Part shown: positions 17,551-43,378 of the stretch, piece after piece
How positions within the stretch are numbered: position 1 is the first letter of the stretch
Layout: the number at the start of each line of letters is the position of its first letter
From: Eubacteriales bacterium
Lineage (GTDB): Bacteria > Bacillota > Clostridia > Oscillospirales > CAG-272
Assembly (NCBI GenBank): GCA_045536155.1
Contig: JAZSMZ010000067.1
Location: forward strand, 1-43,378
Direction: 5' to 3'
DNA: 43,378 nt
Made by a program: the position numbers and the translations under genes
The notes under the pieces: model-generated
Databases searched by the model: none
What the model was told of the DNA's origin: nothing
The model's input: only the letters and a program-made list of their open reading frames with translations

Positions 17551-18243
17551 ATGCCTTTAATATCCTGCAAAAACTGTACCCTTGCATACGACAGCAACAT
17601 TCTGATAAAGGATCTCAGCTTTAGCGTCAATGCTGGCAATTATCTCTGTATCGTCGGCAAAAACGGTTCGGGTAAGAGCACGCTGATGCACGCTATTCTT
17701 GGACTGAAATCGCTTAACGGCGGCGAGATCGAATACGGTGACGGACTTACCAAAACGAGCATCGGATTTCTCCCTCAGCAGACCAACGTGCGCTTCGACT
17801 TCCCTGCATCGGTATTCGAGGTCGTGCTTTCGGGCTGCCGTTCATCGCATCTGCACCACACCGCTCACGATAAAAAGAATGCGGAAGACAAGCTCGAGCT
17901 TTTGGGAATATCTCATCTGAAAAAGCATCCCTTTGCCTATCTTTCGGGCGGTCAGCGCCAGCGCGTGCTTTTGGCGCGTGCCCTCTTTGCCACAAAAAAG
18001 CTTTTGCTGCTTGACGAGCCCACGTCGGGACTCGACCCGATGGCCACCGTCGAGCTTTACGACCTTATCGAAAAAATAAACAAAAGCGGCATCACCGTTA
18101 TAACGGTATCTCACGACCTTGCGTCGGCAATGAAATACGCATCGCACATTCTGCACCTCGGCGACGATTTCATCTTCTTCGGTACTACCGAGGAATACGA
18201 AAAGAGCGACGTCGGGCATTATTATCTCGGGAGCTGTGACTGA
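17551..18243 (+). CDS. Metal (Zn/Mn) ABC transporter ATP-binding protein
   Basis: Walker A GKNGSGKST, signature LSGGQRQRV, Walker B LLLLDEP. The stop overlaps the next start (TGATG). Confidence 0.85.
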   Translation: MPLISCKNCTLAYDSNILIKDLSFSVNAGNYLCIVGKNGSGKSTLMHAILGLKSLNGGEIEYGDGLTKTSIGFLPQQTNVRFDFPASVFEVVLSGCRSSHLHHTAHDKKNAEDKLELLGISHLKKHPFAYLSGGQRQRVLLARALFATKKLLLLDEPTSGLDPMATVELYDLIEKINKSGITVITVSHDLASAMKYASHILHLGDDFIFFGTTEEYEKSDVGHYYLGSCD

Positions 18244-27984: not shown

Positions 27985-28443
27985 TTAATCCTCAAATTGT
28001 TTTCCGAGAAATCCTGCCGCCGTCTGCACAAGCTTCTGCTCGATGTCGTTTGCGGGGACATAAAGCTCGGCCGCAGAGCGAAGGGAGAGCACGCAGCCGG
28101 TGATGTCGCCGTCCGCTATTATGGGCATGGCGCATCCGACCTGCCAGCCGTTTGAATCGTCGTTTGATACCAAAACTGTCTTGTCCTGATTTGCCACGTA
28201 AAGTGCGCGCTTTTCGATGATGCCCTCAAGCTCGGCCGAAAGCCGCTTTTCGTAGAGCTCGCGCTTGGGAAGTCCGGCACATGCGATAACCGCATCGCGG
28301 TCGCATATCGCAACGGCAAACCCTCCCGTTTTGTGCAGCGTTTCCGCATATTGCGCAGCAAATTCGCTTAATTCGCCGATAGGCGAGTATTTTTTGAATA
28401 TCACCTCGCCGTCGCGATCGGTGTATATTTCAAGCGGGTCGCC
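27985..28443 (-). pseudogene. spoVT: 3' fragment of spoVT (from GDPLEI of the AbrB-type domain through the GAF-like domain)
   Basis: GDPLEIYTDRDGEVIFKKYSPIGELSEFAAQYAE...ICDRDAVIA...PIIADGDITGCVL...TAAGFLGKQFED is collinear with B. subtilis SpoVT, from memory. The first 30 codons or so are missing. Confidence 0.8.
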
Positions 28444-30210
28444 GCCACAGATAACATTGACACGAAAAACCTTATCGCGCCGCTTTTTAGCGCGTTGGGC
28501 TGCCACGATTGTATAATCATCGTCGGCTCTTTCGATATTTTCCGTGCCTAAATTAAAATTTACAGCTTCTTCGCTTTCTTCTCCATTCTTAAAATGCTCT
28601 ATTGTACCGGTGCGAAGAAGTTCATCGATATCGGCTTTAAGTTTGACATCGATATGATCTTCATAAACTATTATCCTATCAATAATCAAATTGATGTCGT
28701 TTCTGTCAAGTTTATCTTTTTCAATAATAGCATTAAATAAATCTATGACCGTCTTTGACACGCGATTAACTCTTATAATTGTATTGGCAGCGTCGGATAC
28801 CATAACAAGTTGATTGGTAAGACCTTCAATTCTATTGTTCGCCTCTTCGATTAATGCATCGTAGGTTTCTTCCAGTATCTTTGCATTGTCCTTATGCCTT
28901 ATCATGTCGCGTGTCTTTTGACGAGTCAAGGTCATCAATTCTTCTCTTTCGGCATCAATCTGTCGACTAAGCTCTTCGGCAGCTATCTTACTGCTTTCAG
29001 TTGCTCTTTGCTCATGACTCAACACCTCTTTTAAAATGTTCATCATACTCGAAGAATTATCTCTTACACGCGCTATATATTCTTTAAGCACGGTATCAAG
29101 AAACCTGGCTTTGATATGATGAGAAGTACAACCGGCACGTCCTCTTACGTGATACGTTCCGCATGTATATGCTTCTTCAAGATCCTTACGGCTCATGGCA
29201 AACATATGATTGCCGCAATCACCGCAAAAAAGATATCCGGAGTAAGTATTGTCATACTTTTTCACACCGCGATAAGCGTTTTTTGTGCGTTGTTTAAGAA
29301 GTTCTTGCGTAGTAGCAAAAACTCGGTAATCAACAATTGCCTCGTGATGGTTTTCGAATACAATATGCTCACTTTTGTCCAACGGCACAGCATTGCCGTT
29401 GATTTTTTTACGGTGATATTTTCTTTCGCGCAACGTGCCGATATAGAAATCATTATTTAAAATTTCAGAAACGGTGATAATGCTCCACTGTTCTCTGACC
29501 TTAGCTCTATACTCATCTCCTGCAGCTTCTTTGCGTGCCTTTTCTCTCATTCTCGGTGTGGGAATATGTTTGTCGGTTAAATAATTTGCAATTCTTTTAT
29601 AACCCCAGCCATCAACATAAAGCTTAAATATCGTTCTGACAACTTCGGCAGCCGGCTCGTCAACCTCAAAGATCATTTTCTTGGAATTTGTAATTACATA
29701 TCCGTACGGCACAGAACAGATCCATTCCCCTTTGGCCTGACGGCTTGCAATAACATCGGATACCTTTCGGCTGGCATCGGTTACCGGCATTTCATTTACA
29801 AAAAAGTAGAGCTTAATCTTCAGCCAGTCATCGGTATGATCCTGATAGTAATCCACTCCATCACCAATTGCAATAATTCTGATATCATGTTCAGCAAGAT
29901 CTTCAAATTCGGCAAGCCCCTTTCCCGTACGTCTGGAAAAACGGCTTAGATCTTTAACGATGAGTATATCATACTCGCCGCCGAGCAATTTGGGGCGAAG
30001 TTTTTGATAGTAATCGGGACGCTGCTCAAAAGTATATCCCGAATGATCTCTATCCTCGTAATAGTCAACCGTACTTGTCGGAAAATGAAGTTTACAATAT
30101 TCGCTGATTATTGCTTTTTGATTTTCAATACTTGTATTGTCCTTATTCAATTCAAGATCAACAGATATTCGCGTATATGCGGCTATCTTCAATTCATTCA
30201 ACAACATCAT
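27985..30210 (-). CDS. Large serine recombinase ORF reading in frame into the 3' part of spoVT (741 aa as it stands)
   Basis: The N-terminal 589 aa or so carry resolvase catalytic motifs (AAYTRISV, DRDHSGYTFERP, VKDLSRFSRR), a recombinase domain, a Zn ribbon (CGDCGNH...CGTYH...C) and a coiled coil. The last 152 aa are SpoVT-like. Confidence 0.9.
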   Translation of the reverse strand: MMLLNELKIAAYTRISVDLELNKDNTSIENQKAIISEYCKLHFPTSTVDYYEDRDHSGYTFEQRPDYYQKLRPKLLGGEYDILIVKDLSRFSRRTGKGLAEFEDLAEHDIRIIAIGDGVDYYQDHTDDWLKIKLYFFVNEMPVTDASRKVSDVIASRQAKGEWICSVPYGYVITNSKKMIFEVDEPAAEVVRTIFKLYVDGWGYKRIANYLTDKHIPTPRMREKARKEAAGDEYRAKVREQWSIITVSEILNNDFYIGTLRERKYHRKKINGNAVPLDKSEHIVFENHHEAIVDYRVFATTQELLKQRTKNAYRGVKKYDNTYSGYLFCGDCGNHMFAMSRKDLEEAYTCGTYHVRGRAGCTSHHIKARFLDTVLKEYIARVRDNSSSMMNILKEVLSHEQRATESSKIAAEELSRQIDAEREELMTLTRQKTRDMIRHKDNAKILEETYDALIEEANNRIEGLTNQLVMVSDAANTIIRVNRVSKTVIDLFNAIIEKDKLDRNDINLIIDRIIVYEDHIDVKLKADIDELLRTGTIEHFKNGEESEEAVNFNLGTENIERADDDYTIVAAQRAKKRRDKVFRVNVICGGDPLEIYTDRDGEVIFKKYSPIGELSEFAAQYAETLHKTGGFAVAICDRDAVIACAGLPKRELYEKRLSAELEGIIEKRALYVANQDKTVLVSNDDSNGWQVGCAMPIIADGDITGCVLSLRSAAELYVPANDIEQKLVQTAAGFLGKQFED

Positions 30211-32117: not shown

Positions 32118-32879
32118 TTAGCTTTTCGAACGCTCGGAAAGCCATATCAAAAATTGTTCTTTTCTCATAATTAGTATTCTTGTTAAATCCTTTTCGCCAA
32201 GCACTGTTGTATGATATGCGTCGCAATTAAGTCCGCTATCATCCTTTAGAAAAAAAGCCGCCACAACATCAAGAAGCTTTTTTTGCTCTGTGTTATCATA
32301 GTCAAGCACTCGTCCGATACCGAGGGTTTTGTCATATTCATGAATGAAGCAAACAGCACATTCATCAAAATGCTGTATCGTATGAGACTGTACATACTGC
32401 TCTAAAATACGATATGCAGGATCGATCAGATACTCTGAACTCTTCCACGATTTAGCTTTTGGAACAAGTCCGGGAAATGTCAATTCAACGATCCCGTCAT
32501 ATTCGTTCACCGACATATCTAACTGCTCACCAGCTTTAATCAGATAATCCCGAGAGCGGATATCTGTTGCAAGATAGAGCAAATGTCTCAATCTTCGCGT
32601 GATCTGCTCACTCTTAAATGCCGATTCGCTCAATAAATAATTGCTGTTATTGGGAAGGCATTTGGGCAAATGTGGTGTTATAAGTTCGAGCCACAGTATA
32701 ATATTTTTCATCTCTTTACAAATACTTTCGATATTTTTCTTCACCGTAAATAGTGTGTTATTTGTCTCGAAAGACCCCACGTCTGATGCTTTTGGGAATA
32801 AGCCTTCATCACTATCATTAAGCAGCTCAATTTTTCCACATGATATTAATTTGTCATTGTTCTTTTTTCTTTCGCACAT
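32118..32879 (-). CDS. Hypothetical 253-aa protein; the C-terminal half has a RusA-like D-x-D-N...K...D...DD pattern
   Basis: GAGAGG RBS. VLDYDNTEQKKLLDVVAAFFLKDDSG resembles the RusA resolvase core (DLDNLQKAAFDALT...DD). This is a weak, motif-level match only. Confidence 0.55.
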   Translation of the reverse strand: MCERKKNNDKLISCGKIELLNDSDEGLFPKASDVGSFETNNTLFTVKKNIESICKEMKNIILWLELITPHLPKCLPNNSNYLLSESAFKSEQITRRLRHLLYLATDIRSRDYLIKAGEQLDMSVNEYDGIVELTFPGLVPKAKSWKSSEYLIDPAYRILEQYVQSHTIQHFDECAVCFIHEYDKTLGIGRVLDYDNTEQKKLLDVVAAFFLKDDSGLNCDAYHTTVLGEKDLTRILIMRKEQFLIWLSERSKS

Positions 32880-33104: not shown

Positions 33105-33761
33105 TTATTCAAACTGTTGATCATCCGCACAGTTTTCAGACAAAAAAGTTCCATAGATGTCTTCTTCCGCTCTATGACGCGCTTTCACAGCATCTTCATA
33201 ATTGCTGTAGGAACCAAAATACATAAGTTTTCCTTTGAACTTCAATCTAACGTGCCACTTCTGATTTCTCTTATGCCAATATACTCCTCTGGTGCCGCTT
33301 GTATTGGCTGCTGTCAGTTTCATATCCTGTATTTTTGATATCTGTGTACCGCCGATAAAACCCGCGGCCTCCTTCATTGCCAACGGAGCTGTTTCTTTCA
33401 AACACTTTTGACACATTCGTTCTTTTTTATCAGAAAGCGATCCTGTGGTTCGTAGCACAATTTCTCCACATTCGCAACGGCATTCCCATAATGTATGTAG
33501 TTGATTCCCTCTTTTTCGTTTTTCGTTTGCCTTTCTGATGACAGTCAGTTTGCCAAAAATCTGTCCTGTAAGATCTGGAGATTTCAAACAACCGCAATTG
33601 GTGACATGGCCGCTTTTAAGATTCCCGGTTGTAACAATATGTGTTTTTCCACAATCACAAAGGCAATTCCAACGTCTATGGCCTTTTTCATTGGACGGCA
33701 TCAACTCCTGAACAACAAGTTTACCAAACCTTTGTCCGATTAGATTTTCATATTCACGCAT
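33105..33761 (-). CDS. AP2-domain DNA-binding protein with N-terminal Cys-rich repeats (phage-type)
   Basis: Two copies of GQxFGKLxV...W.C.C.CG...L.SG...CGC, then GVYWHKRNQKWHVRLKFKGKLMYFGSYSNYEDAVKARHRAE, an AP2/integrase-type DNA-binding domain. Confidence 0.7.
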   Translation of the reverse strand: MREYENLIGQRFGKLVVQELMPSNEKGHRRWNCLCDCGKTHIVTTGNLKSGHVTNCGCLKSPDLTGQIFGKLTVIRKANEKRKRGNQLHTLWECRCECGEIVLRTTGSLSDKKERMCQKCLKETAPLAMKEAAGFIGGTQISKIQDMKLTAANTSGTRGVYWHKRNQKWHVRLKFKGKLMYFGSYSNYEDAVKARHRAEEDIYGTFLSENCADDQQFE

Positions 33762-33877: not shown

Positions 33878-34447
33878 TCATTCAAAATGATACACGCCAA
33901 GATAAGGATTAAAAGGACTTCCACTCGCGCGTCTGGTAAGACCTTCACCGGCAATTACATCCGGATATCCAAAGCCTGCGCCATCAATAAAAAACCATAC
34001 GACTCTGTCAACTACAACATCTTCTTCATCGTAAACATTGCGAAGAAGAATAATCTTTTCTTCATCTTTAACCGCTGCGACCGCCTCGGCAAAAGTATCA
34101 TATGTAACATCTCCGATTTGCGCAGCAGGTCCCTCGGTATCCGACTCGGTTTCTACAGGATCTGTCACAACAACAATCGGCTCTGTTTCCTCTACCGTTG
34201 TTTCCTCTGCAGTTGTCTCTTCGACAGTTGTTTCTTCTGCAGTTGTCTCTTCGATAGTTGTCTCTTCTACAGTTGTCTCTTCTGCAGTTGTTTCCTCGAC
34301 AGTTGTTTCTTCTACAGTTGTTTCTTCATAATCCGTAGAAACAGGGGTTTCAGTTGTATTTACATCAACATCAATATCAGTTACCGCGCATCCTGCGGCA
34401 ACAATTACAAATACAACAGTTAAAATAAGTGCAAATATTTTTTTCAT
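33878..34447 (-). CDS. Lipoprotein with an (EETTx)9 linker and a C-terminal module shared with the giant surface protein
   Basis: Signal peptide plus lipobox IVAAGC. The start overlaps the VanZ stop (ATGA). AQIGDVTYDTFAEAVAAVKDEEKIILL is similar to repeated modules in ORF 36534..43378. Confidence 0.7.
   Translation of the reverse strand: MKKIFALILTVVFVIVAAGCAVTDIDVDVNTTETPVSTDYEETTVEETTVEETTAEETTVEETTIEETTAEETTVEETTAEETTVEETEPIVVVTDPVETESDTEGPAAQIGDVTYDTFAEAVAAVKDEEKIILLRNVYDEEDVVVDRVVWFFIDGAGFGYPDVIAGEGLTRRASGSPFNPYLGVYHFE
34184..34327 (-). repeat. 15-nt tandem repeat, about 9.6 copies, encoding EETT(V/A/I)
   Basis: A near-identical unit (plus strand ttc-n-acagttgt-y-tc) is repeated head to tail inside the lipoprotein CDS. 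Confidence 0.85.
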
Positions 34448-34956
34448 TTTACAGTCTTTCCATTATAAAATTTCTGATTCGATGAGTGAATTGATGTATG
34501 AGAACTTTTTTGAATCTTTAATGTCACAAGTAATTCTCCTATTAATACTCCGCATATCACACCGAAAAAATCAATGATCACATCCGAAACACTGCTTGTT
34601 CGCCCTGTAAAACTCTGGATAAACTCGTCAATAACCGCAACGAGCAATCCACAAAGAAGCGGCAAGGAAATATGATGGTTGCCTTTTGTATAACAAATCA
34701 AAGTTATCATTCCTGCAACCGAAAATCCCAGCAAGGCAAATTCAAGAATGTGTGATGCTTTTCGAACAAAATAATTGATATCCTCGGTAGAGATTGTGTC
34801 GTTCGAGTCAAATATCGATTCGATTAAATCCACCAGACCCTTGCTCTGTTCGTATGATTCCTCTCCGTTTTTCAATGAGTTAGAAATAATAAATACTATT
34901 GAAAACACGGTAAGGATAACAAACACGAACGCACATATTTTTATATGTTTTTTCAT
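34444..34956 (-). CDS. VanZ-family membrane protein
   Basis: FVRKASHILEFALLGF...DEFIQSFTGRTSSVSDVIIDFFGVICG is typical of VanZ-like proteins, with 4 TM helices. Confidence 0.75.
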   Translation of the reverse strand: MKKHIKICAFVFVILTVFSIVFIISNSLKNGEESYEQSKGLVDLIESIFDSNDTISTEDINYFVRKASHILEFALLGFSVAGMITLICYTKGNHHISLPLLCGLLVAVIDEFIQSFTGRTSSVSDVIIDFFGVICGVLIGELLVTLKIQKSSHTSIHSSNQKFYNGKTVK

Positions 34957-35275
34957 GGGTTTCTCCTATCATCGGATATGACACGAAAAATTTCTCACGC
35001 CATCTTATTGACATTGAAAATGTAATACTGGCTTAATGAACGCAATCCCAGTGTTATAAATATGTAATCGGTCATCGAAAAATATGTTTTAAGCTATTAT
35101 ATTTTTTCTGCCCTGTCAGAACATACTTAAAGGGCATATTATATTCGTTGTTAAGTGGCTCCTTATCTTTTGTAAGCAAACTAATAAGGAGACTTGTTTA
35201 TTCGCGTATGTGCCAACTAATCATTATGATCATATTAAAAAGATCACATCTGTGAATTGATATATAGGAGCTATT

Positions 35276-35310
35276 GCATGAAAAAGTGCGGCGTTTGCAC
35301 TTTTTCATGC
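35276..35310. repeat. Perfect 14-bp inverted repeat (gcatgaaaaagtgc / gcactttttcatgc) with a 7-nt loop
   Basis: Read directly from the sequence. It lies in the 450-bp non-coding AT-rich spacer between the VanZ and PqqD genes. Confidence 0.8.
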
Positions 35311-35410
35311 ACTCCTATCCATTGATTGCAACGCTATTTTTTCATATGCGTATATAGATCAATTAAACCATTGACATCCTGACGAACGCCGTCAGGAAAT
35401 CCAACGGTTT

Positions 35411-35674
35411 TTATTCGATGCAGCCGACTTTTTCCAAAGTGGAAATAAACTCGTCCACATCAGACAATGCCTGTTCGCGCTCGACATCGTATTCAGCCAA
35501 AAGCGCATCAGCCATTGCATCACGGTCGCTTCCATTTTCCAATGTTCTCCAAAGAAGAACACCGGAATCGTTTAAAGAAAGCATACCGTTAAAACTTACA
35601 GAGGCTTTCCCTACGGGTAAAACAACCCATTGAGAGGAAACCTGACGAAGGACATATCCTTCTTTAATTCTCAT
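35411..35674 (-). CDS. PqqD-family protein (RiPP recognition element / peptide chaperone)
   Basis: 87 aa. VLPVGKASVSFNGMLSLNDSGVLLWRTLENG...ADALLAEYDVEREQALSDVDEFISTLEKVGCIE is a classic stand-alone PqqD/RRE pattern. The start overlaps the kinase stop (ATGA). Confidence 0.85.
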   Translation of the reverse strand: MRIKEGYVLRQVSSQWVVLPVGKASVSFNGMLSLNDSGVLLWRTLENGSDRDAMADALLAEYDVEREQALSDVDEFISTLEKVGCIE

Positions 35675-36396
35675 AAACCAACCTCCTTAGCAGCACGGCA
35701 CATTGTTTCATAACTAAGTAGTGCTGCATCGGTATCGGGACGATTTTCTAGCTCGAAAATCGGGATACTGCGTATGAATAAGTCAGCCATTTTCAACAAA
35801 TTGCTCATTTCCTCGGCTTCCAGTTCTCTATGCAACGTCTGCGTTAGAAACGAAGAGAACGCCTCCATACCGTCTAATTGGTGAATATGATTATAAGGTG
35901 CTCGTTTTAGAAAACAAACACCAGCCAACGGTACCTTAACATTACAATTGATACCATCCTTACCGCACCATGGCGTACCATATGCATACCAACTGCCATC
36001 GATATAGCGCAAAGCAGGCTTATCATCGTTGAAAACCTTAGCCTTTTCGCCAAATACCTGTTGCCATGTTCTTGTATGTGTGCTTTTGCCCACACCACAT
36101 GGGCCAGAAAATAAGTAGGCCTTATTATCAATCATAACAGCAGACGAATGAAGATAAAAACCCTGGAATGCAATCAACCCACGATAAAACTGATAAGCCG
36201 ATTCCATATAGGCAACTGTATTTTCACCTATCCGTTTATCATACTTATCTGCACGATAATGTTCCGAATGTATAGAGATATCGGATTGTACCGTTTCCGA
36301 ACACACATATTCCGCACAGCGGGAAGCTAAGCCTCCCGCTGTGGGAACTGAAACATATAGGTCAGCAATTTTGCAAAGTATCACTTGCTCATTCAC
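35671..36396 (-). CDS. HPr-kinase-like P-loop protein (HprK-related kinase of RiPP clusters)
   Basis: LHSSAVMIDNKAYLFSGPCGVGKSTHTRTW resembles the HprK C-domain Walker A region. The GTG start directly abuts the TAA of the upstream peptide ORF. Confidence 0.6.
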   Translation of the reverse strand: MNEQVILCKIADLYVSVPTAGGLASRCAEYVCSETVQSDISIHSEHYRADKYDKRIGENTVAYMESAYQFYRGLIAFQGFYLHSSAVMIDNKAYLFSGPCGVGKSTHTRTWQQVFGEKAKVFNDDKPALRYIDGSWYAYGTPWCGKDGINCNVKVPLAGVCFLKRAPYNHIHQLDGMEAFSSFLTQTLHRELEAEEMSNLLKMADLFIRSIPIFELENRPDTDAALLSYETMCRAAKEVGL

Positions 36397-36516
36397 TTAA
36401 AAGATACTGCTTTCCAGACCGATTTCACCGTCGATGAAACCATCTCCGTCCGCAATTCTTTCTTGAATATCAAGAGAAACTATAATAACTTCAGGTTTTT
36501 CGTATTCTTTTTTCAT
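36397..36516 (-). CDS. 39-aa candidate RiPP precursor peptide (not in the ORF track)
   Basis: My translation is MKKEYEKPEVIIVSLDIQERIADGDGFIDGEIGLESSIF. An AGGAGG lies 10 nt upstream. It is translationally abutted to the kinase and carries a lasso-type Y-x-x-P-x-hydrophobic leader motif. Confidence 0.5.
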   Translation of the reverse strand: MKKEYEKPEVIIVSLDIQERIADGDGFIDGEIGLESSIF

Positions 36517-36533
36517 TCTATTGCATCCTCCTT

Positions 36534-39500
36534 TTAGTTTATTTCAGCAGAGGAGTTAACGCCTATGTTGGATACAACAACAGCCGAAACACCCAGAATA
36601 TTGTAACCTTCTGTACCGGTCAATGTTAATGTAAACATCTGTCCATATTTACCTCCAATGGGGTTATAGCTTTCGATATATTTTTTAACCATTTCATCGG
36701 TGAATACAAACTTTTGAGTGCCACCTTCTACATTTCCTGTCGCTTTCGACCATGAAACATGAATCTCAATGGAAACTCCGCTTACATTTTTACCTGTAGT
36801 CAACAGTTCATGTGTAGCTTCACTGAACAGGGGCTGGAACACATATTTACCATTGGATATCGCCACATTGAATTCAATCTCTACAAACTTATATCCATCT
36901 ACAGTACAAACAGGCATCTGCTCGTTGTTGTTGGCAAGTTTAATATTGTCTTTCTCTATAACAAGCAAGCCGGTCTTTTCGTCGCTACTGTCAATCACGT
37001 GGTTTCCGTTGAATGCTACGAGATATGCAGTTTCCAATGTCTTACCGTTCAGGTCTAAGGTTATACCCTTAGTGATCATTACGGTGCTTCCCACAGTATC
37101 TACTAGCAACTTAACAGTATCACCAGATTTCGCAGCGTCGAGTGCGGCTGCGAGGGTTTCATAGTAAGCGTCACCGATCTGAGCTACAGGGTCAAATATA
37201 TCTTCGGTGATAGTATCGCCGGAAATATTGATATGATGTCCTGTACCGCTACCGATATCGGAGCCGTCAGGCGTATTATTGTTCAGAATCAGCTTAACGG
37301 TGTTGCCTTCCTTTGCATCGCCGTTTGCTACACCGTCAAAGTAACCGATAAGGTAACCTACGATAGCATTACCGGTTACATTTGCCTTTTCAGAGGCGGT
37401 GTTGCCAAGGAGAGTAAGTTTTCCGGTGCTGTCAACAGTGTTCCAGTTGGTGGCAGGAAGCTCGGTGTTGACTTCACCGATGAGACCACCTGCGATTTCA
37501 GTTGCATAAACCTTACCGCTTGCAGAGCATCCGTTGAATTCAACAAATACACTCTTACCGTCACCGGACATACCGTTCTTACCGGCAAATCCACCGGCAA
37601 CAGTACCGGAGATGTCACCGGTTGCAGAGCAATCGGTAAAGGTGTACTTATGCGTAGAGTATGCCTGCGTAGCACCTACGAAGCCGCCTGCAATGCCGGT
37701 GCAAGTGATATCAACATCAGCAGAAGCATTGTAGTATTCACAAGCACGTCCTCCAACCTGACCTGCAAAACCACCGTAAATACCGTCAGCACCCTTGATA
37801 GTACCAGCAGCAGAGCATCCGTCGAAGCCCTTTACAGTACCTGCGGAGGTAGTACCGTTGTTCCATGCGATGAAGCCGCCGACAGTCTGAGAGGTTCCCT
37901 CAGCAGCGGTTACATCAAGACCGGTAACGTGGCAGTCTACGAAATAGTTGGAGTGGCTGTTGTAAGTATCGGAGCCGAAGAAGCCGCCGACCTCGGAGCC
38001 GGTGCCGTTCAGGGTGATCGTGATAGCGTCAACGTCACAGTCAACAAAGTAGTTCTGGAGAACGTATTCAGTACCGTCAATGATCTGAACAGTTCCTTCA
38101 AGCCAGTGTGCATTGTTACCTGTAACACCGGCATCCCAAACGTGTGCACGGCCGTATGCGGTGTGACCGCCGATGACGTTGCCGGTGCCGTTTACGGTGT
38201 AAACTGCATTCTTAACGTCAACATTGCCGAGCTGAGACTTCCATGCATAACCGGTTACGGAACCGATGAGACCATCGTTGCCGTTTGCAGTTACGTTGAT
38301 GCCGTCGATGGTGATGTCTTCGAGAACGTTCCAATACTGGAGGTTACCTGCGACTGCACCAACGCGTGCATTGTCTGCGCCAACGGTGAAGTTAACATCT
38401 TTGAGAGTGAAATCGTGGAGATAAGCCTTTTCAATCAGACCGAACAGACCCATGCGTGCGCCCTGAGTCTGGGTCAGATTGCTGATAGTATGGCTCTGAC
38501 CGTCGAACTCGCCTGCGAAGTATACGTCCTCGCCGCCGATGGGAGACCATTCGATACCTGCGAGGTCGATGTCCGCGTCGAGCGTAATGGTCTTGCCGGC
38601 GTACGTTTCGCCTGCGGTAACCAGTTCTGCAAATCTCAGCAGATCATCCTTGTTACGGATCACGAGATCCCATTCCTTGATGCCGTATGTGCCGTCGCCG
38701 TTGTCTTTAGCCATAAAGCCAAGTTCACAGCCGTTGGTTTCAGACTCAGCACTACCGTTTGCAGTATCAAAGAACTTGACATTTTCGGGATTGAAGTTGA
38801 TAAATGTACCGTCGGAGATGACCATCTTGGTAGCATCCTGATCAATACCTACACCGTTGTTGGTGGTAGGCTTGCTGGAGCCGTTCCAGCCCAGCAGATA
38901 ATCGGAATCCTTCTGCTCGAAGGTACCGCCGGTGATGTTCATTGTACCGCCGTGGGAGGGATACAGGAAGATGTTGCTTGCACCGCAGGTCTTACAAGGA
39001 TAATTCGTCCATGTACCACCTTCGATGGTGCCGACAGCATCTACGCCGACCACGTACATACCGGTACCCATGCCGTATACGTCGACCTTACCGGTACCGA
39101 CACTGTCCTTAACAGTGAAGCCGGAGGTTTCACCGGCATTACCGGTAATGGTTACCATGAACAGGGATACCTGACGCTTGTTGCAGTAGTCATCGTGATG
39201 TGCATCCCAGGTGATGCTGTGACCGTTCAGGTCAAGTACAACGCCGGGCTTGGTGATGTGGAACACAGCACCGTTGCCGTGTACTTCAGTGTACTTGCCG
39301 TTGCCGTTGGAGGGGAGCACGAGTGCATTGACAAGTTCGTAATCGGTGATAACGATATCCCGATCAAGGGTTACGTCGTTACCGGCAAGGAGTTCTGCCT
39401 TGATCCACTTGATGTAATCTATAGCCAGTGTATAAACACCGTCTGCATACTGAACCTTGTAACCTTCAACATTGGTAGTTACATTGAGACCTTCAGGAGC

Positions 39501-42500
39501 TGTCAGGGTTGCTGTAGCATCGGTCAGAATGATCTTATGACCGTTGCAGTTAAGTGTAAATTCGCCGCAGTCCAGAACAAGGTCTTTTCCGATATTGTTG
39601 ATTTCAACATCCTCGCTCAGTTCGACGTTTGCCAAAAGAGTGATGGGGCTGTCCTTCTGAGCAACAGCTGCTGCGAATGCCTCATCAATGGTGGCATAAC
39701 CAACTTTCTTGGGGGCGTAGTACGGACCGGTGGTCATGCCGGTATTGACATACGCGACTGCTCCGTCCTTAACAGTCCATGTGCCGTCGGTGGTGTTTGC
39801 AACAACGTAGCAGGTCTTGTCAACAACTGCTTCGTTGCTCCAATGCTGACGGTTGATATCAGCGTTGAAGGTACCACCGGTGATGAGTACATGGTGATCG
39901 CCTGCACCTAGAACATTGAAGATCCATGGCTTGCCGTTTTCACCTGTGCCTACATTACCGAGGGTGAAGGTACCATCCTTGACGGTAACTGCTGCGTCGG
40001 TGTAGCCGCCGGAGTAGACGAGGGAGTCGCTTGCCTTATCGAGCGTGTAAGTACCGTTTTCGATAATAATGGTGCAATCATCTTCATAGTTTGCAATCAG
40101 CGAGTAAACCTTATTTGTTGCGGTTACGTTTACAGTACCGTTGCCGGTGAGAGTCAAGTGACCGCCGTTATCGGTGGAGAATACACCAACCAGCATCGTG
40201 TTGGTTCCGGTGTATTCGCCGGAGATGGTCTTGCCGTTCAGGTCGATGGTTACGGACTTGCCTTCCACGAGGAAGTAGGTGTCGTAACTGCCGTCCAGAA
40301 CCTGCAGCTCGGTATTTGCAAGATCGATGTCAGCGAGAACAGTGATGGTATCGCCGTCCTGTGCAGCGTCGATTGCAGCCTGGATGCTGGTGTAGGTGGT
40401 GTCGCCGATCTTTGCAACGGGTTCATCGCCAATCCATTTTGCATAGTAGGTCTTTACGCTGCTGTTAAGCGCAGTGTATGCTTCGCCGGTAAGTTCAGCG
40501 TTGTCATACCAACCGCCGAATTCAGCGCCGTCCTTGTATGCAGTCTCAACGAGATGGAAATTGCCGCCGCCTGCTGCATCATCTACCAGAGCGGCATATT
40601 CGGGAGAAGTACCGCCGTTGAGGTAGTATGTGTAGCCGTTTACTGTATCGGTGAAATTGTCCATCTTTTCGAGGAACAGAATATTCTGTGCACCGCCAAC
40701 ATAGGTGTTGCCGATACCGCCGGTTACCGTTCCGGTGGAGGTGCTGTTGATCAGTTCTACAACACCGCCGTAAGAAATCAGACCGCCGGCATAAACAGCA
40801 GAGTTGGGGTTGTTCACAACAACGTTACCAGTGTTCTCGCAATCCTTTGCGATCAGCCATGCGCCTGCGGAATAGTAGCCTGCGCCAATACCGGCTGCAT
40901 GGGTTTCGCCGTTTGCCGTTACAGTGATCGTACCGGAGTTCTTACAACCGTCAAATACGATCTTCAGTCTCTGGCCGGCTGCCTGGTTGTGATCGCGGCC
41001 GAGAATACCGCCTGCGCTGGGTGCACCGCCGCCAAGGGAGGTGATGTCACCGGTGTTTACGCAGTTCTTGAAGGTAACCGTTCCGCGCATGGTAACCAGA
41101 TAGTTTCCTTCGCGGGCGCTGTTCATCAGACCGAGAATACCGCCTGCTTCGCGTGCTTCAGTGGTAACATCAGCAGCATTGGAGCAGTTTTCAATGGTAA
41201 TGTCAACTGCGGGCTGGCTCAGCTGAGAGTCCATATGACCGATCAGACCGCCCATGTTGTTGGAAGCCTTGACGGTACCGCTGAGAACGTGGCAGTTGGA
41301 AATTACACTTGTCTTTTCGTTTGCGGGGACGTAATAACCGATGAGAGCTGCAATGCCGGAACCGTAAACCTCGTTACCTGCACTGTCAGTGCGGGTTCCG
41401 CAGTCGATGTCAACATTTGCAAATTTTACATTGGAAATGTTCGCGCCGTATACATAACCAAACAGACCGAAGCTGTACTCGGTGCTGCCGGTTTCGGCGG
41501 AGTCGGGAATATAACCGTTAGAAGTCAGGCCGGTGATGGTGTGATTGTCGCCATCGAAGTTACCGGCAAACATCTTGACGCCGTCGGTAGTAGGAGTCTT
41601 ATCATAGTTGCTTGTACCGATCGGAATCCAAATTTCATTCGAAAGGTCAATGTCAGCAGTCAGCTTGACATACTGACCTGCATAAGTATTGCCTTCGTTG
41701 ACAGAATCACGGAATGCTTTGAGTTCCTTGAGATTGCTGATAATGAAAGGATCGGTTTCTGTACCGGAACCGGAAAGAACAATGTCTTCCTTAACGCTCC
41801 ATGTACCGTTCTTATTTACAGCCTTGTAGCCTTCAGCTACATATGTAGAAGGATCCTGGTCGAAGGTACCGCCGGTGATCGACATCGTACCGCTTACACC
41901 GAGGGTAGCATTCTTACCGCCGGAGAAGTTACCGCCGGTGATGGTAGCCTTAGCACCTGCCTGAACACAAACGGCAGAGCCGCTGTCCATGGTAGTGCCC
42001 TTCGGGCCAACGAATGTACCGGCGTTGATCGTTACATCGGCTGCGCCGGAAATGTTAACCGAATGACGGGTACCTGTTGTCGAAGTCAGCTTGTACTCGC
42101 CGCCTTCGATGGTTGCGATAACAGCACCGTCGATACGAACGCCGTGACGAGCGCTGGAAACATTCACGTCAGTCAGCGTGAGGCTGCCTGCGTTGATTTC
42201 GATTGCGCTGACGGAGGCATTGGTGTTCTTGATAGTACCGTTCTGAACAGTCAGATCTGCATTGGGAGCAAGAATGCTGCCGGTCAGAGTCTTGCCGTTG
42301 AGATCGAGAACAACAGTTGCGTCTGCAGGAACGTTTGCAGTTGCAGTTACGTTCTTAATCAGCGTAACAGTCTCGCCGTTCTTTGCAGCCTCAAATGCAT
42401 CTTCAAGGTCACAATAGGTTGTGAGACCAACATTAGCTACGGTGTAGTCTTTAGATGTACCGTTGTTGTTCGCATAGAACATGTCCATTACTTCTTTGCT

Positions 42501-43378
42501 GCCGAAGGTAATGGTTTCAAGTTTTTCATCATATGCGAAAATTTCGCTGGACTTTGTCCATGTGGGGTTGGAATGTGCGTTGAAATCCTTGAAGTAATCA
42601 ATATGATTTGTACCATGTACACTTACAAGAGTAGCAGGAAGTGTTGCATGCTTCAAATTGTGGCAGTTATTGAATACCCAAGCATGGAGATGTACAGGAC
42701 GGTCTGCGGGGAGTACAACCTCTTCAATAATGAGGTCTTTGAATGCGCCCTGTGCAATACACAGTTCCTCAGTTCCGCCTGCAGCAAAGGTCAGCTTTGT
42801 GAAGGTAGACTTCTGGAATGCTTCCTGACCGATATAAGTAACGGTGGAAGGAATTACCACTTCGCCGGTCAGGTTGGTAAAGCCCTGTGCAGTGAAGGAA
42901 CCGATAGAGGTAACGCCTTCTTCGATCACAAGCTTTTTAACCTTTGTGCGGTCATAAGGCCAGCCTTCTATTGCTTTACCTTCACCGGTGCTGTCATAAC
43001 GGACAGCTTCTCTCCAAGCACCGACTTCATAAGTCTTACCGCTGTTAGGATCAGCTACAGGAGTACCCTTGGTAGGTGCAATGGTGAGCGTACCGTCATC
43101 GGTCAGAGTCCAGTCGATACCGCCCCATGTGCCGCCTTCGTAAGCGGGAACCAAGCCGTAAAAGCCGGTTTCCTCATTCATTTCGAACTTAAAGCCATCG
43201 GCAATCTTGAGTTCCCCGTCAGTAGGATCAACAGTGAACGTACCGCCGGAAATTACCGTTTCATGCTTGCGACCATCATAAGAATTGAAGAAGTCATTAT
43301 AGCCTTCCATCACGAAGTGGCCACCATTAATATAGGTGTAATAGCCCTTTTTATTGCTGCTAGCAGTAAGGCCTTCTA
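36534..43378 (-). CDS. Giant secreted/surface protein (more than 2280 aa; N-terminus beyond the window) with BspA-type LRR, beta-helix-like GGTF modules and GLUG-motif regions
   Basis: The frame stays open upstream of the listed start to the window edge (EGLTASSNKKGYYTYINGGHFVMEGY...). LRR segment: IEEGVTSIGSFTAQGFTNLTGEVVIPSTVTYIGQEAF. GLUG-like segments: FGLFGYVYGANISNV, GGLIGHM, GGILGL. Several IGD.xY.T/S..AAL.AA..GDT..LL modules recur. Confidence 0.85.
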   Translation of the reverse strand, partial: EGLTASSNKKGYYTYINGGHFVMEGYNDFFNSYDGRKHETVISGGTFTVDPTDGELKIADGFKFEMNEETGFYGLVPAYEGGTWGGIDWTLTDDGTLTIAPTKGTPVADPNSGKTYEVGAWREAVRYDSTGEGKAIEGWPYDRTKVKKLVIEEGVTSIGSFTAQGFTNLTGEVVIPSTVTYIGQEAFQKSTFTKLTFAAGGTEELCIAQGAFKDLIIEEVVLPADRPVHLHAWVFNNCHNLKHATLPATLVSVHGTNHIDYFKDFNAHSNPTWTKSSEIFAYDEKLETITFGSKEVMDMFYANNNGTSKDYTVANVGLTTYCDLEDAFEAAKNGETVTLIKNVTATANVPADATVVLDLNGKTLTGSILAPNADLTVQNGTIKNTNASVSAIEINAGSLTLTDVNVSSARHGVRIDGAVIATIEGGEYKLTSTTGTRHSVNISGAADVTINAGTFVGPKGTTMDSGSAVCVQAGAKATITGGNFSGGKNATLGVSGTMSITGGTFDQDPSTYVAEGYKAVNKNGTWSVKEDIVLSGSGTETDPFIISNLKELKAFRDSVNEGNTYAGQYVKLTADIDLSNEIWIPIGTSNYDKTPTTDGVKMFAGNFDGDNHTITGLTSNGYIPDSAETGSTEYSFGLFGYVYGANISNVKFANVDIDCGTRTDSAGNEVYGSGIAALIGYYVPANEKTSVISNCHVLSGTVKASNNMGGLIGHMDSQLSQPAVDITIENCSNAADVTTEAREAGGILGLMNSAREGNYLVTMRGTVTFKNCVNTGDITSLGGGAPSAGGILGRDHNQAAGQRLKIVFDGCKNSGTITVTANGETHAAGIGAGYYSAGAWLIAKDCENTGNVVVNNPNSAVYAGGLISYGGVVELINSTSTGTVTGGIGNTYVGGAQNILFLEKMDNFTDTVNGYTYYLNGGTSPEYAALVDDAAGGGNFHLVETAYKDGAEFGGWYDNAELTGEAYTALNSSVKTYYAKWIGDEPVAKIGDTTYTSIQAAIDAAQDGDTITVLADIDLANTELQVLDGSYDTYFLVEGKSVTIDLNGKTISGEYTGTNTMLVGVFSTDNGGHLTLTGNGTVNVTATNKVYSLIANYEDDCTIIIENGTYTLDKASDSLVYSGGYTDAAVTVKDGTFTLGNVGTGENGKPWIFNVLGAGDHHVLITGGTFNADINRQHWSNEAVVDKTCYVVANTTDGTWTVKDGAVAYVNTGMTTGPYYAPKKVGYATIDEAFAAAVAQKDSPITLLANVELSEDVEINNIGKDLVLDCGEFTLNCNGHKIILTDATATLTAPEGLNVTTNVEGYKVQYADGVYTLAIDYIKWIKAELLAGNDVTLDRDIVITDYELVNALVLPSNGNGKYTEVHGNGAVFHITKPGVVLDLNGHSITWDAHHDDYCNKRQVSLFMVTITGNAGETSGFTVKDSVGTGKVDVYGMGTGMYVVGVDAVGTIEGGTWTNYPCKTCGASNIFLYPSHGGTMNITGGTFEQKDSDYLLGWNGSSKPTTNNGVGIDQDATKMVISDGTFINFNPENVKFFDTANGSAESETNGCELGFMAKDNGDGTYGIKEWDLVIRNKDDLLRFAELVTAGETYAGKTITLDADIDLAGIEWSPIGGEDVYFAGEFDGQSHTISNLTQTQGARMGLFGLIEKAYLHDFTLKDVNFTVGADNARVGAVAGNLQYWNVLEDITIDGINVTANGNDGLIGSVTGYAWKSQLGNVDVKNAVYTVNGTGNVIGGHTAYGRAHVWDAGVTGNNAHWLEGTVQIIDGTEYVLQNYFVDCDVDAITITLNGTGSEVGGFFGSDTYNSHSNYFVDCHVTGLDVTAAEGTSQTVGGFIAWNNGTTSAGTVKGFDGCSAAGTIKGADGIYGGFAGQVGGRACEYYNASADVDITCTGIAGGFVGATQAYSTHKYTFTDCSATGDISGTVAGGFAGKNGMSGDGKSVFVEFNGCSASGKVYATEIAGGLIGEVNTELPATNWNTVDSTGKLTLLGNTASEKANVTGNAIVGYLIGYFDGVANGDAKEGNTVKLILNNNTPDGSDIGSGTGHHINISGDTITEDIFDPVAQIGDAYYETLAAALDAAKSGDTVKLLVDTVGSTVMITKGITLDLNGKTLETAYLVAFNGNHVIDSSDEKTGLLVIEKDNIKLANNNEQMPVCTVDGYKFVEIEFNVAISNGKYVFQPLFSEATHELLTTGKNVSGVSIEIHVSWSKATGNVEGGTQKFVFTDEMVKKYIESYNPIGGKYGQMFTLTLTGTEGYNILGVSAVVVSNIGVNSSAEIN

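Follow-up and report, generated by a model that had tools for sequence, protein, structure and literature searches.

A precursor peptide, an HPrK-fold kinase and a PqqD-family protein in a Clostridial contig as the probable front half of a pathway related to linear polyphosphorylated peptides

Linear Polyphosphorylated Peptides (LPPs), produced by a pathway for peptides that ribosomes synthesize and that are modified post-translationally (RiPPs), were recently described in Bacilli by Popov et al. (Nat Commun, 20 May 2026; PMC13381572). The core genes of an LPP cluster encode a precursor with the signature YxxPxVLxHQxIxFETxxS, the HprK-like kinase LppK, the discrete RiPP recognition element (RRE) LppB, an archaeal/SipW-type signal peptidase (LppS), an MsbA-like exporter (LppD) and a nucleoside triphosphate (NTP)-transferase (LppN), the last three being called late genes hereafter; the genes from Paenibacillus alginolyticus DSM5050 were expressed as lppA-K-B-S-D-N (PMC13381572). 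LppK loads core residue Ser3 with as many as four phosphates, the S3T and S3Y variants being left unphosphorylated, and LppS cuts the leader after T-1 in a reaction that requires LppB and proceeds poorly on the unphosphorylated precursor; LppN was inactive in the heterologous host (PMC13381572). In Bacilli, the clusters often lie within capsule loci (PMC13381572). A phrase search of the literature found no further publication on LPP-type systems. Here, we analyze a stretch of 43,378 nt (hereafter "the window"), which corresponds to positions 1 to 43,378 of the forward strand of contig JAZSMZ010000067.1 from an Eubacteriales bacterium (assembly GCA_045536155.1; Clostridia, Oscillospirales), and in which three contiguous genes on the minus strand encode a 39-aa peptide, a P-loop protein and a stand-alone PqqD-family protein. 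We consider it probable that this trio represents the front half (lppA-lppK-lppB) of a Clostridial relative of the LPP pathway.

The lppA-like precursor gene (36397..36516, minus strand) is recognized both as an open reading frame (ORF) and by its conservation; it encodes 39 residues, MKKEYEKPEVIIVSLDIQERIADGDGFIDGEIGLESSIF, and an AGGAGG ribosome-binding site (36527..36532, minus strand) stands 10 nt ahead of its ATG. Its TAA directly abuts the GTG, at 36396, of the gene for the LppK-like kinase, a protein of 241 aa with a P-loop fold of the HPr kinase/phosphorylase (HPrK/P) and phosphoenolpyruvate carboxykinase (PEPCK) type (35671..36396, minus strand), and the stop of the kinase gene overlaps, as ATGA, the start of the gene for the discrete RRE, a PqqD-family, LppB-like protein of 87 aa (35411..35674, minus strand). 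This compact arrangement had been reported in the initial annotation of the window and is confirmed here, with one caveat: since most homologues of the kinase begin five codons later (MLCKIADL...), translation may in reality start at the second GTG (36384), and the kinase gene would then be separated by 12 nt from the peptide TAA and not abut it. Upstream of the trio, only 17 nt separate the peptide ATG from the stop of a giant gene for a secreted, adhesin-like protein (36534..43378, minus strand; >2280 aa), which is open at the contig end. Downstream, an inverted repeat with a 7-bp stem, CCTGACG-gcgtt-CGTCAGG (35378..35396, minus strand), lies 15 nt past the PqqD stop; it carries no T-tract and was not called by a terminator scan, and it is the end of the conserved unit in the window copy. 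The repeat falls in an AT-rich spacer of 454 nt (34957..35410; GC content about 0.34-0.37) that holds no convincing gene. In agreement with the initial annotation, we found no cyclase, protease or exporter gene within 8 kb downstream of the trio, and the giant gene alone occupies the upstream side, up to the contig end.

The small ORF proved to be widely conserved. Of 72 related loci, about 60 have an equivalent ORF immediately ahead of the gene for the kinase homologue, and 62 distinct homologous peptides, aligned on the Tyr of the leader motif, all share the same register. The Tyr is present in 61 of the 62 peptides and the Pro at Tyr+3 in every one, and most of them also keep Glu at Tyr+6 (48/62), Ile or Val at Tyr+8 (58/62), Phe or Leu at Tyr+10 (60/62), Glu or Asp at Tyr+14 (54/62) and Ile, Leu or Val at Tyr+16 (53/62). 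Comparison of the window gene, which is single-copy in the window, with two relatives of the same length gave a dN/dS of about 0.2-0.3, a value to be read with the reservation that dS is saturating; a third pair was saturated. Judged from these alignments, the 39-aa peptide appears to be the product of a conserved, translated gene, far beyond what chance would produce.

In the leader of the window peptide, Y5-E-K-P8-E-V10 corresponds to the YxxPx[V/L] motif by which leaders bind their RRE. When the register of LppA is borrowed (Tyr at -16, cleavage after T-1), the leader reads MKKEYEKPEVIIVSLDIQER, with Y5 at -16, P8 at -13 and E19 at -2, and the core is predicted to be IADGDGFIDGEIGLESSIF. 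The predicted cleavage would thus fall at R20|I21, with the conserved Glu at -2. An earlier proposal, made by analogy with lasso peptides, had placed the start of the core at A22 and assigned the role of ring acceptor to the Asp at core position 8; this proposal is without basis, since no cyclase occurs in the related loci and since the kinase groups with LppK, as detailed below. Position -2, which was Arg in that register, becomes Glu in the LPP register. The C-terminal parts, or cores, of the 62 peptides are variable; their median length is 21 aa and their median net charge -5. Ser, the only residue that LppK accepts, is present in all of them. Around the predicted cleavage site, the window peptide reads Q-E-R|I-A-D and has Asp at +3, so that the acceptor cannot be assigned by the Ser+3 rule of LPPs; Ser or Thr occupies +3 in 13 of the 62 members of the clade. 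The subgroup to which the window peptide belongs keeps the tail G-[LVI]-[EDMA]-S-x(1-5)-F (GLESSIF, GVESSEF, GVESTDF, GVASSPF, GIMSSIF and others), and based on this conservation S36, or else S37, is a candidate phospho-acceptor.

The P-loop protein had been called HprK-like, a description that holds for its fold and fails for its sequence. Neither Pfam Hpr_kinase nor TIGR00679 nor the HprK-related TIGR models matched the 241-aa protein at E <= 0.1, and a PDB profile search with 69 diverse homologues returned P-loop noise only, with HPrK and PEPCK at E about 0.4-1.6. The AlphaFold2 model built on the same 69 homologues reached a mean pLDDT of 93.2 and a pTM of 0.90, and its 46 Foldseek matches in the PDB at E <= 1e-3 were all HPrK/P catalytic domains or ATP-dependent PEP carboxykinases, 1jb1, 1kkl and 2qmh among the best of them. 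The top match was HprK/P from L. casei (1jb1; E 1e-5, target-normalised TM 0.56). As far as the model goes, "HprK-like" is therefore correct at the level of the fold, not at that of sequence models. The protein also differs from HPrK/P by its N-terminal domain, by the lack of an HPr-type substrate context and by TM-scores of 0.34-0.56.

HPrK-type kinases have the motif order H...GxxGxGKS...DD, and this order is found in the window kinase as LH83-S-S85-A, the Walker A motif G98-P-C-G-V-G103-K104-S105-T106, and N123-D124-D125, in line with the common scheme H-x-S/G-x-V ... GxxGxGKS ... (N/S/A)DD. Gly103, Lys104 and Asn123 are invariant across diverse homologues, and His83, Ser85, Ser105, Thr106, Asp124 and Asp125 are nearly so. 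The alignment of LppK with the lasso kinases PbaK and BsfK provides a basis for comparing the motif order (PMC13381572). A hidden Markov model (HMM) of the kinase family, 2,652 sequence clusters (at 90% identity) of which match the window kinase, gave LppK 70.7 bits and the lasso kinases less than half of that (BsfK, 31.4 bits; PbaK, 30.8 bits). The best NCBIfam model for the window kinase is ScmC (TIGR04249; 2.8e-4, 20.3 bits versus a cut-off of 125), and its homologues carry the precomputed Pfam label PF27840 "ScmC". ScmC is also the best NCBIfam model for LppK (8.2e-10), that of the lasso kinase PbaK being hpr-ser. These comparisons suggest that the window kinase groups with LppK, in an LppK/ScmC-like branch, and not with the lasso kinases. 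The resemblance to the SynChlorMet system extends to the pairing of a kinase-like protein with a PqqD-family protein (ScmC/ScmD; TIGR04249/TIGR04248), but the score is far under the ScmC cut-off. Two radical SAM/SPASM enzymes define the SynChlorMet cassette, whose counterparts are absent here: none of the window ORFs that were scanned is a radical SAM gene.

The 87-aa protein, which had been proposed to be a stand-alone PqqD protein, indeed matches Pfam PqqD (PF05402) at 2.6e-18. Searched against the PDB, a profile of its family retrieved TbiB1 (3.7e-8), TfuB1 (9.2e-7), PbaB1 (9x90; 6.4e-6) and LppB (9x8z_B; 7.7e-5), and the family HMM scored PbaB1 at 35.2 bits and LppB at 29.6 bits. The NCBIfam lasso_PqqD models remained below their cut-offs on the window protein (NF033530, 41.1 versus 70 bits; NF033536, 26.1 versus 80 bits). 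In the crystal structure of LppB, N33, Y60, D70 and F74 hold Tyr-16 and Pro-13 of the leader, and N33 and D70 set Tyr-type RREs apart from paeninodin-type RREs (PMC13381572). The window protein has N35, Y62, D72 and F76 at the aligned positions and thus keeps the Asn and the Asp that bind Tyr-x-x-Pro; at the Pro-kink position, where Gly is typical of paeninodin-type RREs, it has Asn.

We then compared the window with 80 loci from species-representative genomes and with several metagenome contigs, by clustering crude gene calls, building HMMs of the clusters and searching six-frame ORFs. The 80 loci all come from metagenome-assembled genomes (MAGs) or isolates of gut and rumen Clostridia (Oscillospiraceae, Faecousia, Lachnospiraceae and others). 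Their canonical gene order runs from a giant secreted protein through the peptide, the kinase and the PqqD-type RRE to a protein that we designate c1, a signal peptidase of about 155 aa of the S24/S26 type, and an ABC exporter (ABC_membrane and ABC_tran domains) and/or an NTP_transf_5 enzyme (PF14907; 1.3e-38). Downstream sequence of at least 5 kb was available for 56 loci, of which 51 carry the PqqD gene, 49 carry c1 and 34 carry the SipW-like peptidase, accompanied in 26 by an ABC exporter or an NTP-transferase. The initial annotation had asked whether the trio is conserved as a stand-alone unit; the answer is hence no. The peptidase, the ABC exporter and the NTP-transferase are all missing from 21 of the 56 loci (38%), and c1 is missing as well from 4 of the 56, which is the state of the window. 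None of the 309 ORFs of at least 350 aa in 81 related loci encodes an Asn-synthetase-like cyclase; two of them have an SGGxDS motif, at the N-terminus of proteins of 354 aa that are too short for cyclases, and clustering revealed no conserved gene cluster of the size class of cyclases besides the ABC pump. The c1 proteins are membrane- or lipobox-anchored and consist of a long low-complexity linker rich in Thr, Pro, Ser and Glu, and end in a conserved domain of about 70 aa (LTYEEYxAMSxxEQQAYxESF....DFFxWYNxAKxxYExxNPxIEIG..G.IDLGD) that has no Pfam match above threshold; examples are found in loci L017 (10989-11543), L001 (7144-8151) and L090 (1802-2179). Some members have an extra N-terminal domain, which in the one scanned gave a weak, sub-threshold match to SLH (E 0.0014). 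We rejected the idea that c1 is a second, long precursor, given its signal or lipobox N-terminus and the lack of a YxxP leader. Departures from the canonical order were also observed: in locus L093 (8001-9191), the SipW-like peptidase gene directly follows the kinase gene, with no PqqD gene between them, and in loci L094 (2489-3223) and L095, a lone kinase homologue lies between a two-component system and a giant gene.

Several likenesses argue for a relationship with LPPs. The gene set and the gene order of complete related loci match lppA-K-B-S-D-N, and neither cluster type contains a cyclase. The leader shares with LppA, in the same register, Y(-16), P(-13), V(-11) and E(-2), and both types of cluster are often found near cell-surface loci, capsule genes (Wzz, CpsD, CpsB, LCP) adjoining some of the Clostridial loci. 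The HMM of the peptidases from the related loci gave LppS 73.5 bits, and on the signal peptidases in the dataset of the LPP paper it reached 152 bits for an uncultured Ruminococcus (cluster 9 of the sequence similarity network) and 114 bits for Anaerocolumna (cluster 4). The HMM of the NTP-transferases gave PbaN 64.7 bits and LppN 28.6 bits.

A number of observations weigh against the assignment to LPPs. The window peptide and its clade lack the extended leader consensus VLxHQxIxFET and the Ser+3 acceptor, and the Clostridial cores are acidic whereas the examples in the dataset of the LPP paper are rich in Gly, Asn and Pro, some of them in Lys. Clostridial RREs beside signal peptidase genes were labelled "other" and not LPP by Popov et al. 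(PMC13381572). The RRE profile rates lasso B1 proteins slightly above LppB, so that the window RRE is not specifically nearer to LppB. The window kinase is only 26% identical to LppK over 231 aa by BLASTP, and the reference sequences of LppK, PbaK and BsfK, reconstructed from a supplementary figure that was read by machine, are not necessarily free of errors. The lack of late genes was assessed on this one contig. Finally, we infer the phosphorylation itself, its site and its number in the Clostridial clade by analogy with LppK. Clostridial loci further differ by their short cores, by the presence of c1 between the RRE and the peptidase, which is not described for the clusters of Bacilli, and by the tight coupling of the precursor gene to a giant secreted-protein gene, which is not mentioned for the LPPs of Bacilli; the window copy differs in addition by the lack of the peptidase, the exporter and the NTP-transferase. 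Because the leader consensus, Ser+3, the acidic cores, c1 and the label "other" set the clade apart, we file it as an LPP-like variant and not as a proven member of the class.

Our working model takes its steps from the biochemistry and the structures of the LPP proteins. By homology with the LppB structure, the PqqD-type RRE would bind the Y5-x-x-P8 leader through a pocket formed by Asn35, Asp72, Phe76 and Tyr62 and would present the peptide to the HPrK-fold kinase, which, if it behaves like LppK, would use ATP to phosphorylate a Ser in the acidic core once or several times. In complete clusters, the leader would next be cut off by a SipW-like S26 peptidase of the cytoplasm, in the window numbering at the predicted site after R20, 16 residues from the Tyr, an MsbA-like ABC pump would export the product, and the NTP_transf_5 enzyme may decorate the phosphate. 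In the window, the late genes and the clade-specific c1 have been lost, the cluster ending at the hairpin that precedes the spacer and a block of low GC content. The initial annotation had put forward a unit of the RiPP type in which a YxxP leader is combined with an RRE and an HPrK-fold kinase, and this is supported. The same annotation had considered a minimal kinase and RRE system making a phosphorylated linear peptide, which it believed to be undescribed; the chemistry appears to be of the right kind, but the LPP family was published in May 2026 (PMC13381572), and the system would not be a minimal one because its short state is derived.

Evidence for this derived state comes from the nearest relatives. 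The spacer 34957..35410 sits where related loci carry c1, the SipW-like peptidase, and the ABC exporter and/or NTP-transferase genes. In locus L090 (74% kinase identity), the RRE gene is followed after 105 nt by c1, and locus L086 (67% kinase identity) has kept c1, the signal peptidase, the ABC exporter and the NTP-transferase. Since these nearest relatives with readable downstream DNA keep late genes, the window copy is a derived truncation and not a new minimal system. Searches by tblastn and with HMMs over the whole 43-kb window, spacer included, found no remnant of c1, signal peptidase, ABC exporter or NTP-transferase by the trio. ABC-related matches were confined to an ORF of 230 aa (17551-18243) at a distance of about 18 kb, the exporters being 550-615 aa long, and the only match to the NTP-transferase is weak (E 0.002) and falls inside a serine recombinase ORF. 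The next-closest kinases (71-72% identity) are on three independent metagenome contigs, L087, L088 and L089, which all end about 40 nt past the PqqD stop, in a GC-rich hairpin followed by a G-run, and are therefore uninformative as to late genes; these ends, at the very site of the window truncation, could stem from a junction that varies among strains or from an artefact of assembly or sequencing. That the locus might be the remnant of a standard cluster had been foreseen, and in spirit this is what we find, late genes having been lost, but from a cluster of the LPP type and not from one with lasso C and B2 genes.

A truncated cluster may be a dead one. According to this explanation, which we regard as unlikely although it fares best among the rivals, the late genes were lost through a deletion or upon the arrival of the low-GC block, and the trio is functionless and has simply not yet been mutated. 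It draws on the rarity of the window state, in which c1, the peptidase, the exporter and the NTP-transferase are all missing (only 4 of the 56 related loci), on the nearest relatives, which keep c1 or the full set, and on the adjoining block of 7 kb with a phage-type serine recombinase and an HNH endonuclease, whose genes are found beside no other locus. Yet all three ORFs of the trio are intact and contain every residue that is invariant or nearly invariant in the families, the ribosome-binding site and the coupling to the giant gene are preserved, and the 21 of 56 loci that lack the peptidase, the exporter and the NTP-transferase keep intact front halves, as if the front half were worth keeping. 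We lean toward the view that the window peptide is still phosphorylated and that it would mature only if a second locus supplied the peptidase and the exporter in trans, the trio being otherwise in decay. Such a completion in trans is plausible, since late genes are lacking from those 21 loci and since four MAGs (SVLT01, JAZKXW01, JAUNND01 and JAZNEN01) carry two loci each.

The association with the giant gene deserves attention. The window giant contains regions of the LRR_5, Flg_new and M26_N-like types. Its reading frame stays open up to the contig end, and we therefore consider its listed GTG start at 43313 an artefact. Its last ~205 aa (36546-37163) correspond to a C-terminal module common to the giants ahead of LPP-like clusters (HMM, 1.8e-61); this module, of about 220 aa family-wide, immediately precedes the cluster in 56 of 72 loci, and the other giants are proteins of 1.5-3.3 kaa with Sec signal peptides. 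The distance from the giant stop to the precursor ATG has a median of 21 nt in the related loci (6-35 nt). An ORF of 892 aa (37233-39911, plus strand) is antisense to the window giant; almost certainly it is not a gene but the spurious shadow of a repetitive, GC-rich one, and in several related loci crude gene calling was led astray by long antisense ORFs of this sort.

Together, the giant coupling, the anchoring of c1 and the capsule neighbours suggest, at the level of gene context, a role at the cell surface. A bolder and improbable extension of this idea is that, in gut Clostridia, the LPP-like machinery is an accessory of giant surface proteins and not a free-standing antimicrobial pathway: an acidic phosphorylated, possibly glycosylated, peptide would act with the conserved C-terminal module of the giant and with the membrane-tethered c1 protein in anchoring, assembling or regulating the adhesin. 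If so, the giant, the peptide, the kinase and the RRE of the window would be the still-functional core of that system. Quite improbable is the related explanation that the trio, with its acidic peptide, and the giant together make up a self-sufficient surface module that works without a dedicated peptidase or exporter; for instance, the phosphopeptide or the precursor could act inside the cell, or with the giant adhesin in its secretion or anchoring. The short intergenic distances and the recurrence of the giant module described above speak for such a module, as do the loci devoid of a giant, which usually also lack the upstream peptide, and the 38% of loci that have a front half without late genes. 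An interaction between the parts is nevertheless a supposition, and the single-sequence AlphaFold model of the giant C-terminal module (pLDDT 40) is unusable; moreover, the tested role of the LPP RRE is to present the precursor to the peptidase, phosphorylation promotes leader cleavage, and c1, present in 49 of the 56 loci, is lost in the window.

The related loci also resemble clusters of the paeninodin type (PadeK/PbaK kinases, PsmN-type NTP-transferases), which share with them a discrete PqqD-type RRE, a [Y/W]xxP leader, an HprK-fold kinase acting on a Ser of the precursor, and an NTP_transf_5 enzyme and an ABC exporter within the cluster; they differ by having neither a macrolactam cyclase nor a B2 cysteine protease in any locus. 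In the window, no Asn-synthase-like protein was found among the gene-like ORFs of at least 500 aa that were scanned, and a lasso B2 gene was found neither among the scanned ORFs of the window, which did not include all small ORFs distant from the trio, nor in the related loci. That the trio belongs to a truncated or trans-completed lasso cluster of this type, its kinase being a tailoring enzyme and its cyclase and B2 protease deleted or encoded elsewhere, is highly implausible and is rejected here: the YxxPxV leader does resemble lasso leaders, the top NCBIfam and PDB matches of the RRE are lasso B1 proteins, and both HprK-like kinases and NTP_transf_5 enzymes are known to tailor lasso peptides, but the 81 related loci hold no cyclase and no other conserved gene of that size than the ABC pump, the leader protease is SipW-like and not B2 where it is present, the kinase family HMM favors LppK (70.7 bits) over lasso kinases (about 31 bits), the lasso_PqqD models stay below their cut-offs, and the Glu at -2 fits LPP leaders, lasso leaders having a conserved penultimate Thr as given in PMC10368454.

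If the trio is indeed the front half of an LPP-like pathway, then a class that was defined only in 2026, and in Bacilli, has a much larger branch in gut and rumen Clostridia, to which the window belongs. This branch would keep the logic of LPP biosynthesis with a changed substrate (acidic core, no Ser+3), an added membrane protein and a coupling to adhesin-like genes. It offers a testable lead, namely, that LPP-type peptides serve cell-surface biology rather than antibiosis, and the natural variants reduced to the front half are suited to asking whether phosphorylation alone has a function. As regards annotation, such loci should not be called lasso clusters.

The block next to the truncated end, at about 28.4-35.3 kb, has a GC content of 0.33-0.41, versus 0.42-0.50 (mostly 0.46-0.49) over the first 28 kb, in 2-kb bins. 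It contains, from the trio outward, a VanZ gene (34444-34956), a lipoprotein-like ORF of 189 aa (33878-34447, minus strand), an HNH endonuclease gene (33105-33761; phrog_374, 9.8e-39), a DUF6100 gene (32118-32879), an ORF of 372 aa without family match, and a large serine recombinase. The latter is part of an ORF of 741 aa (27985-30210, minus strand) in which Resolvase, Recombinase and Zn_ribbon_recom domains (aa 10-379) are in frame with the C-terminal part of SpoVT, from about residue 31 of SpoVT on (SpoVT_C, 1.9e-37). This in-frame fusion indicates that spoVT was most probably split by an integrated element, in a manner reminiscent of intervening elements such as skin and SPbeta. The first ~30 codons of spoVT were not found in the contig, either with regular expressions or with a BLOSUM sliding window in six frames, and from the sequence at hand either the element extends past the contig end, with the giant gene and the trio as its cargo, or the contig is rearranged or chimeric. 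Should the machinery be an accessory of giant surface proteins as considered above, the window unit might travel as cargo of this recombinase element. A contig from human faeces labelled "Bacteriophage sp." encodes a recombinase with 54% identity to that of the window.

When the proteins encoded in the low-GC block were compared by tblastn with all related loci, one distant VanZ was the sole common neighbour. VanZ is among the domains that co-occur with the LPP clusters of Bacilli (31 counts; Supplementary Data 2 of PMC13381572), and for this reason the VanZ gene of the window might belong to the cluster and not to the element. The lipoprotein-like ORF of 189 aa has EETTV/EETTA repeats and a motif, AAQIGDVTYDTFAEAVAAVKDEEKIILL, that by eye looks like a cap-like motif repeated in the giant protein (VAKIGDTTYTSIQAAIDAAQDGDTITVL; DPVAQIGDAYYETLAAALDAAKSGDTVKLL); this ORF could be a fragment or a small relative of the giant-type surface proteins.

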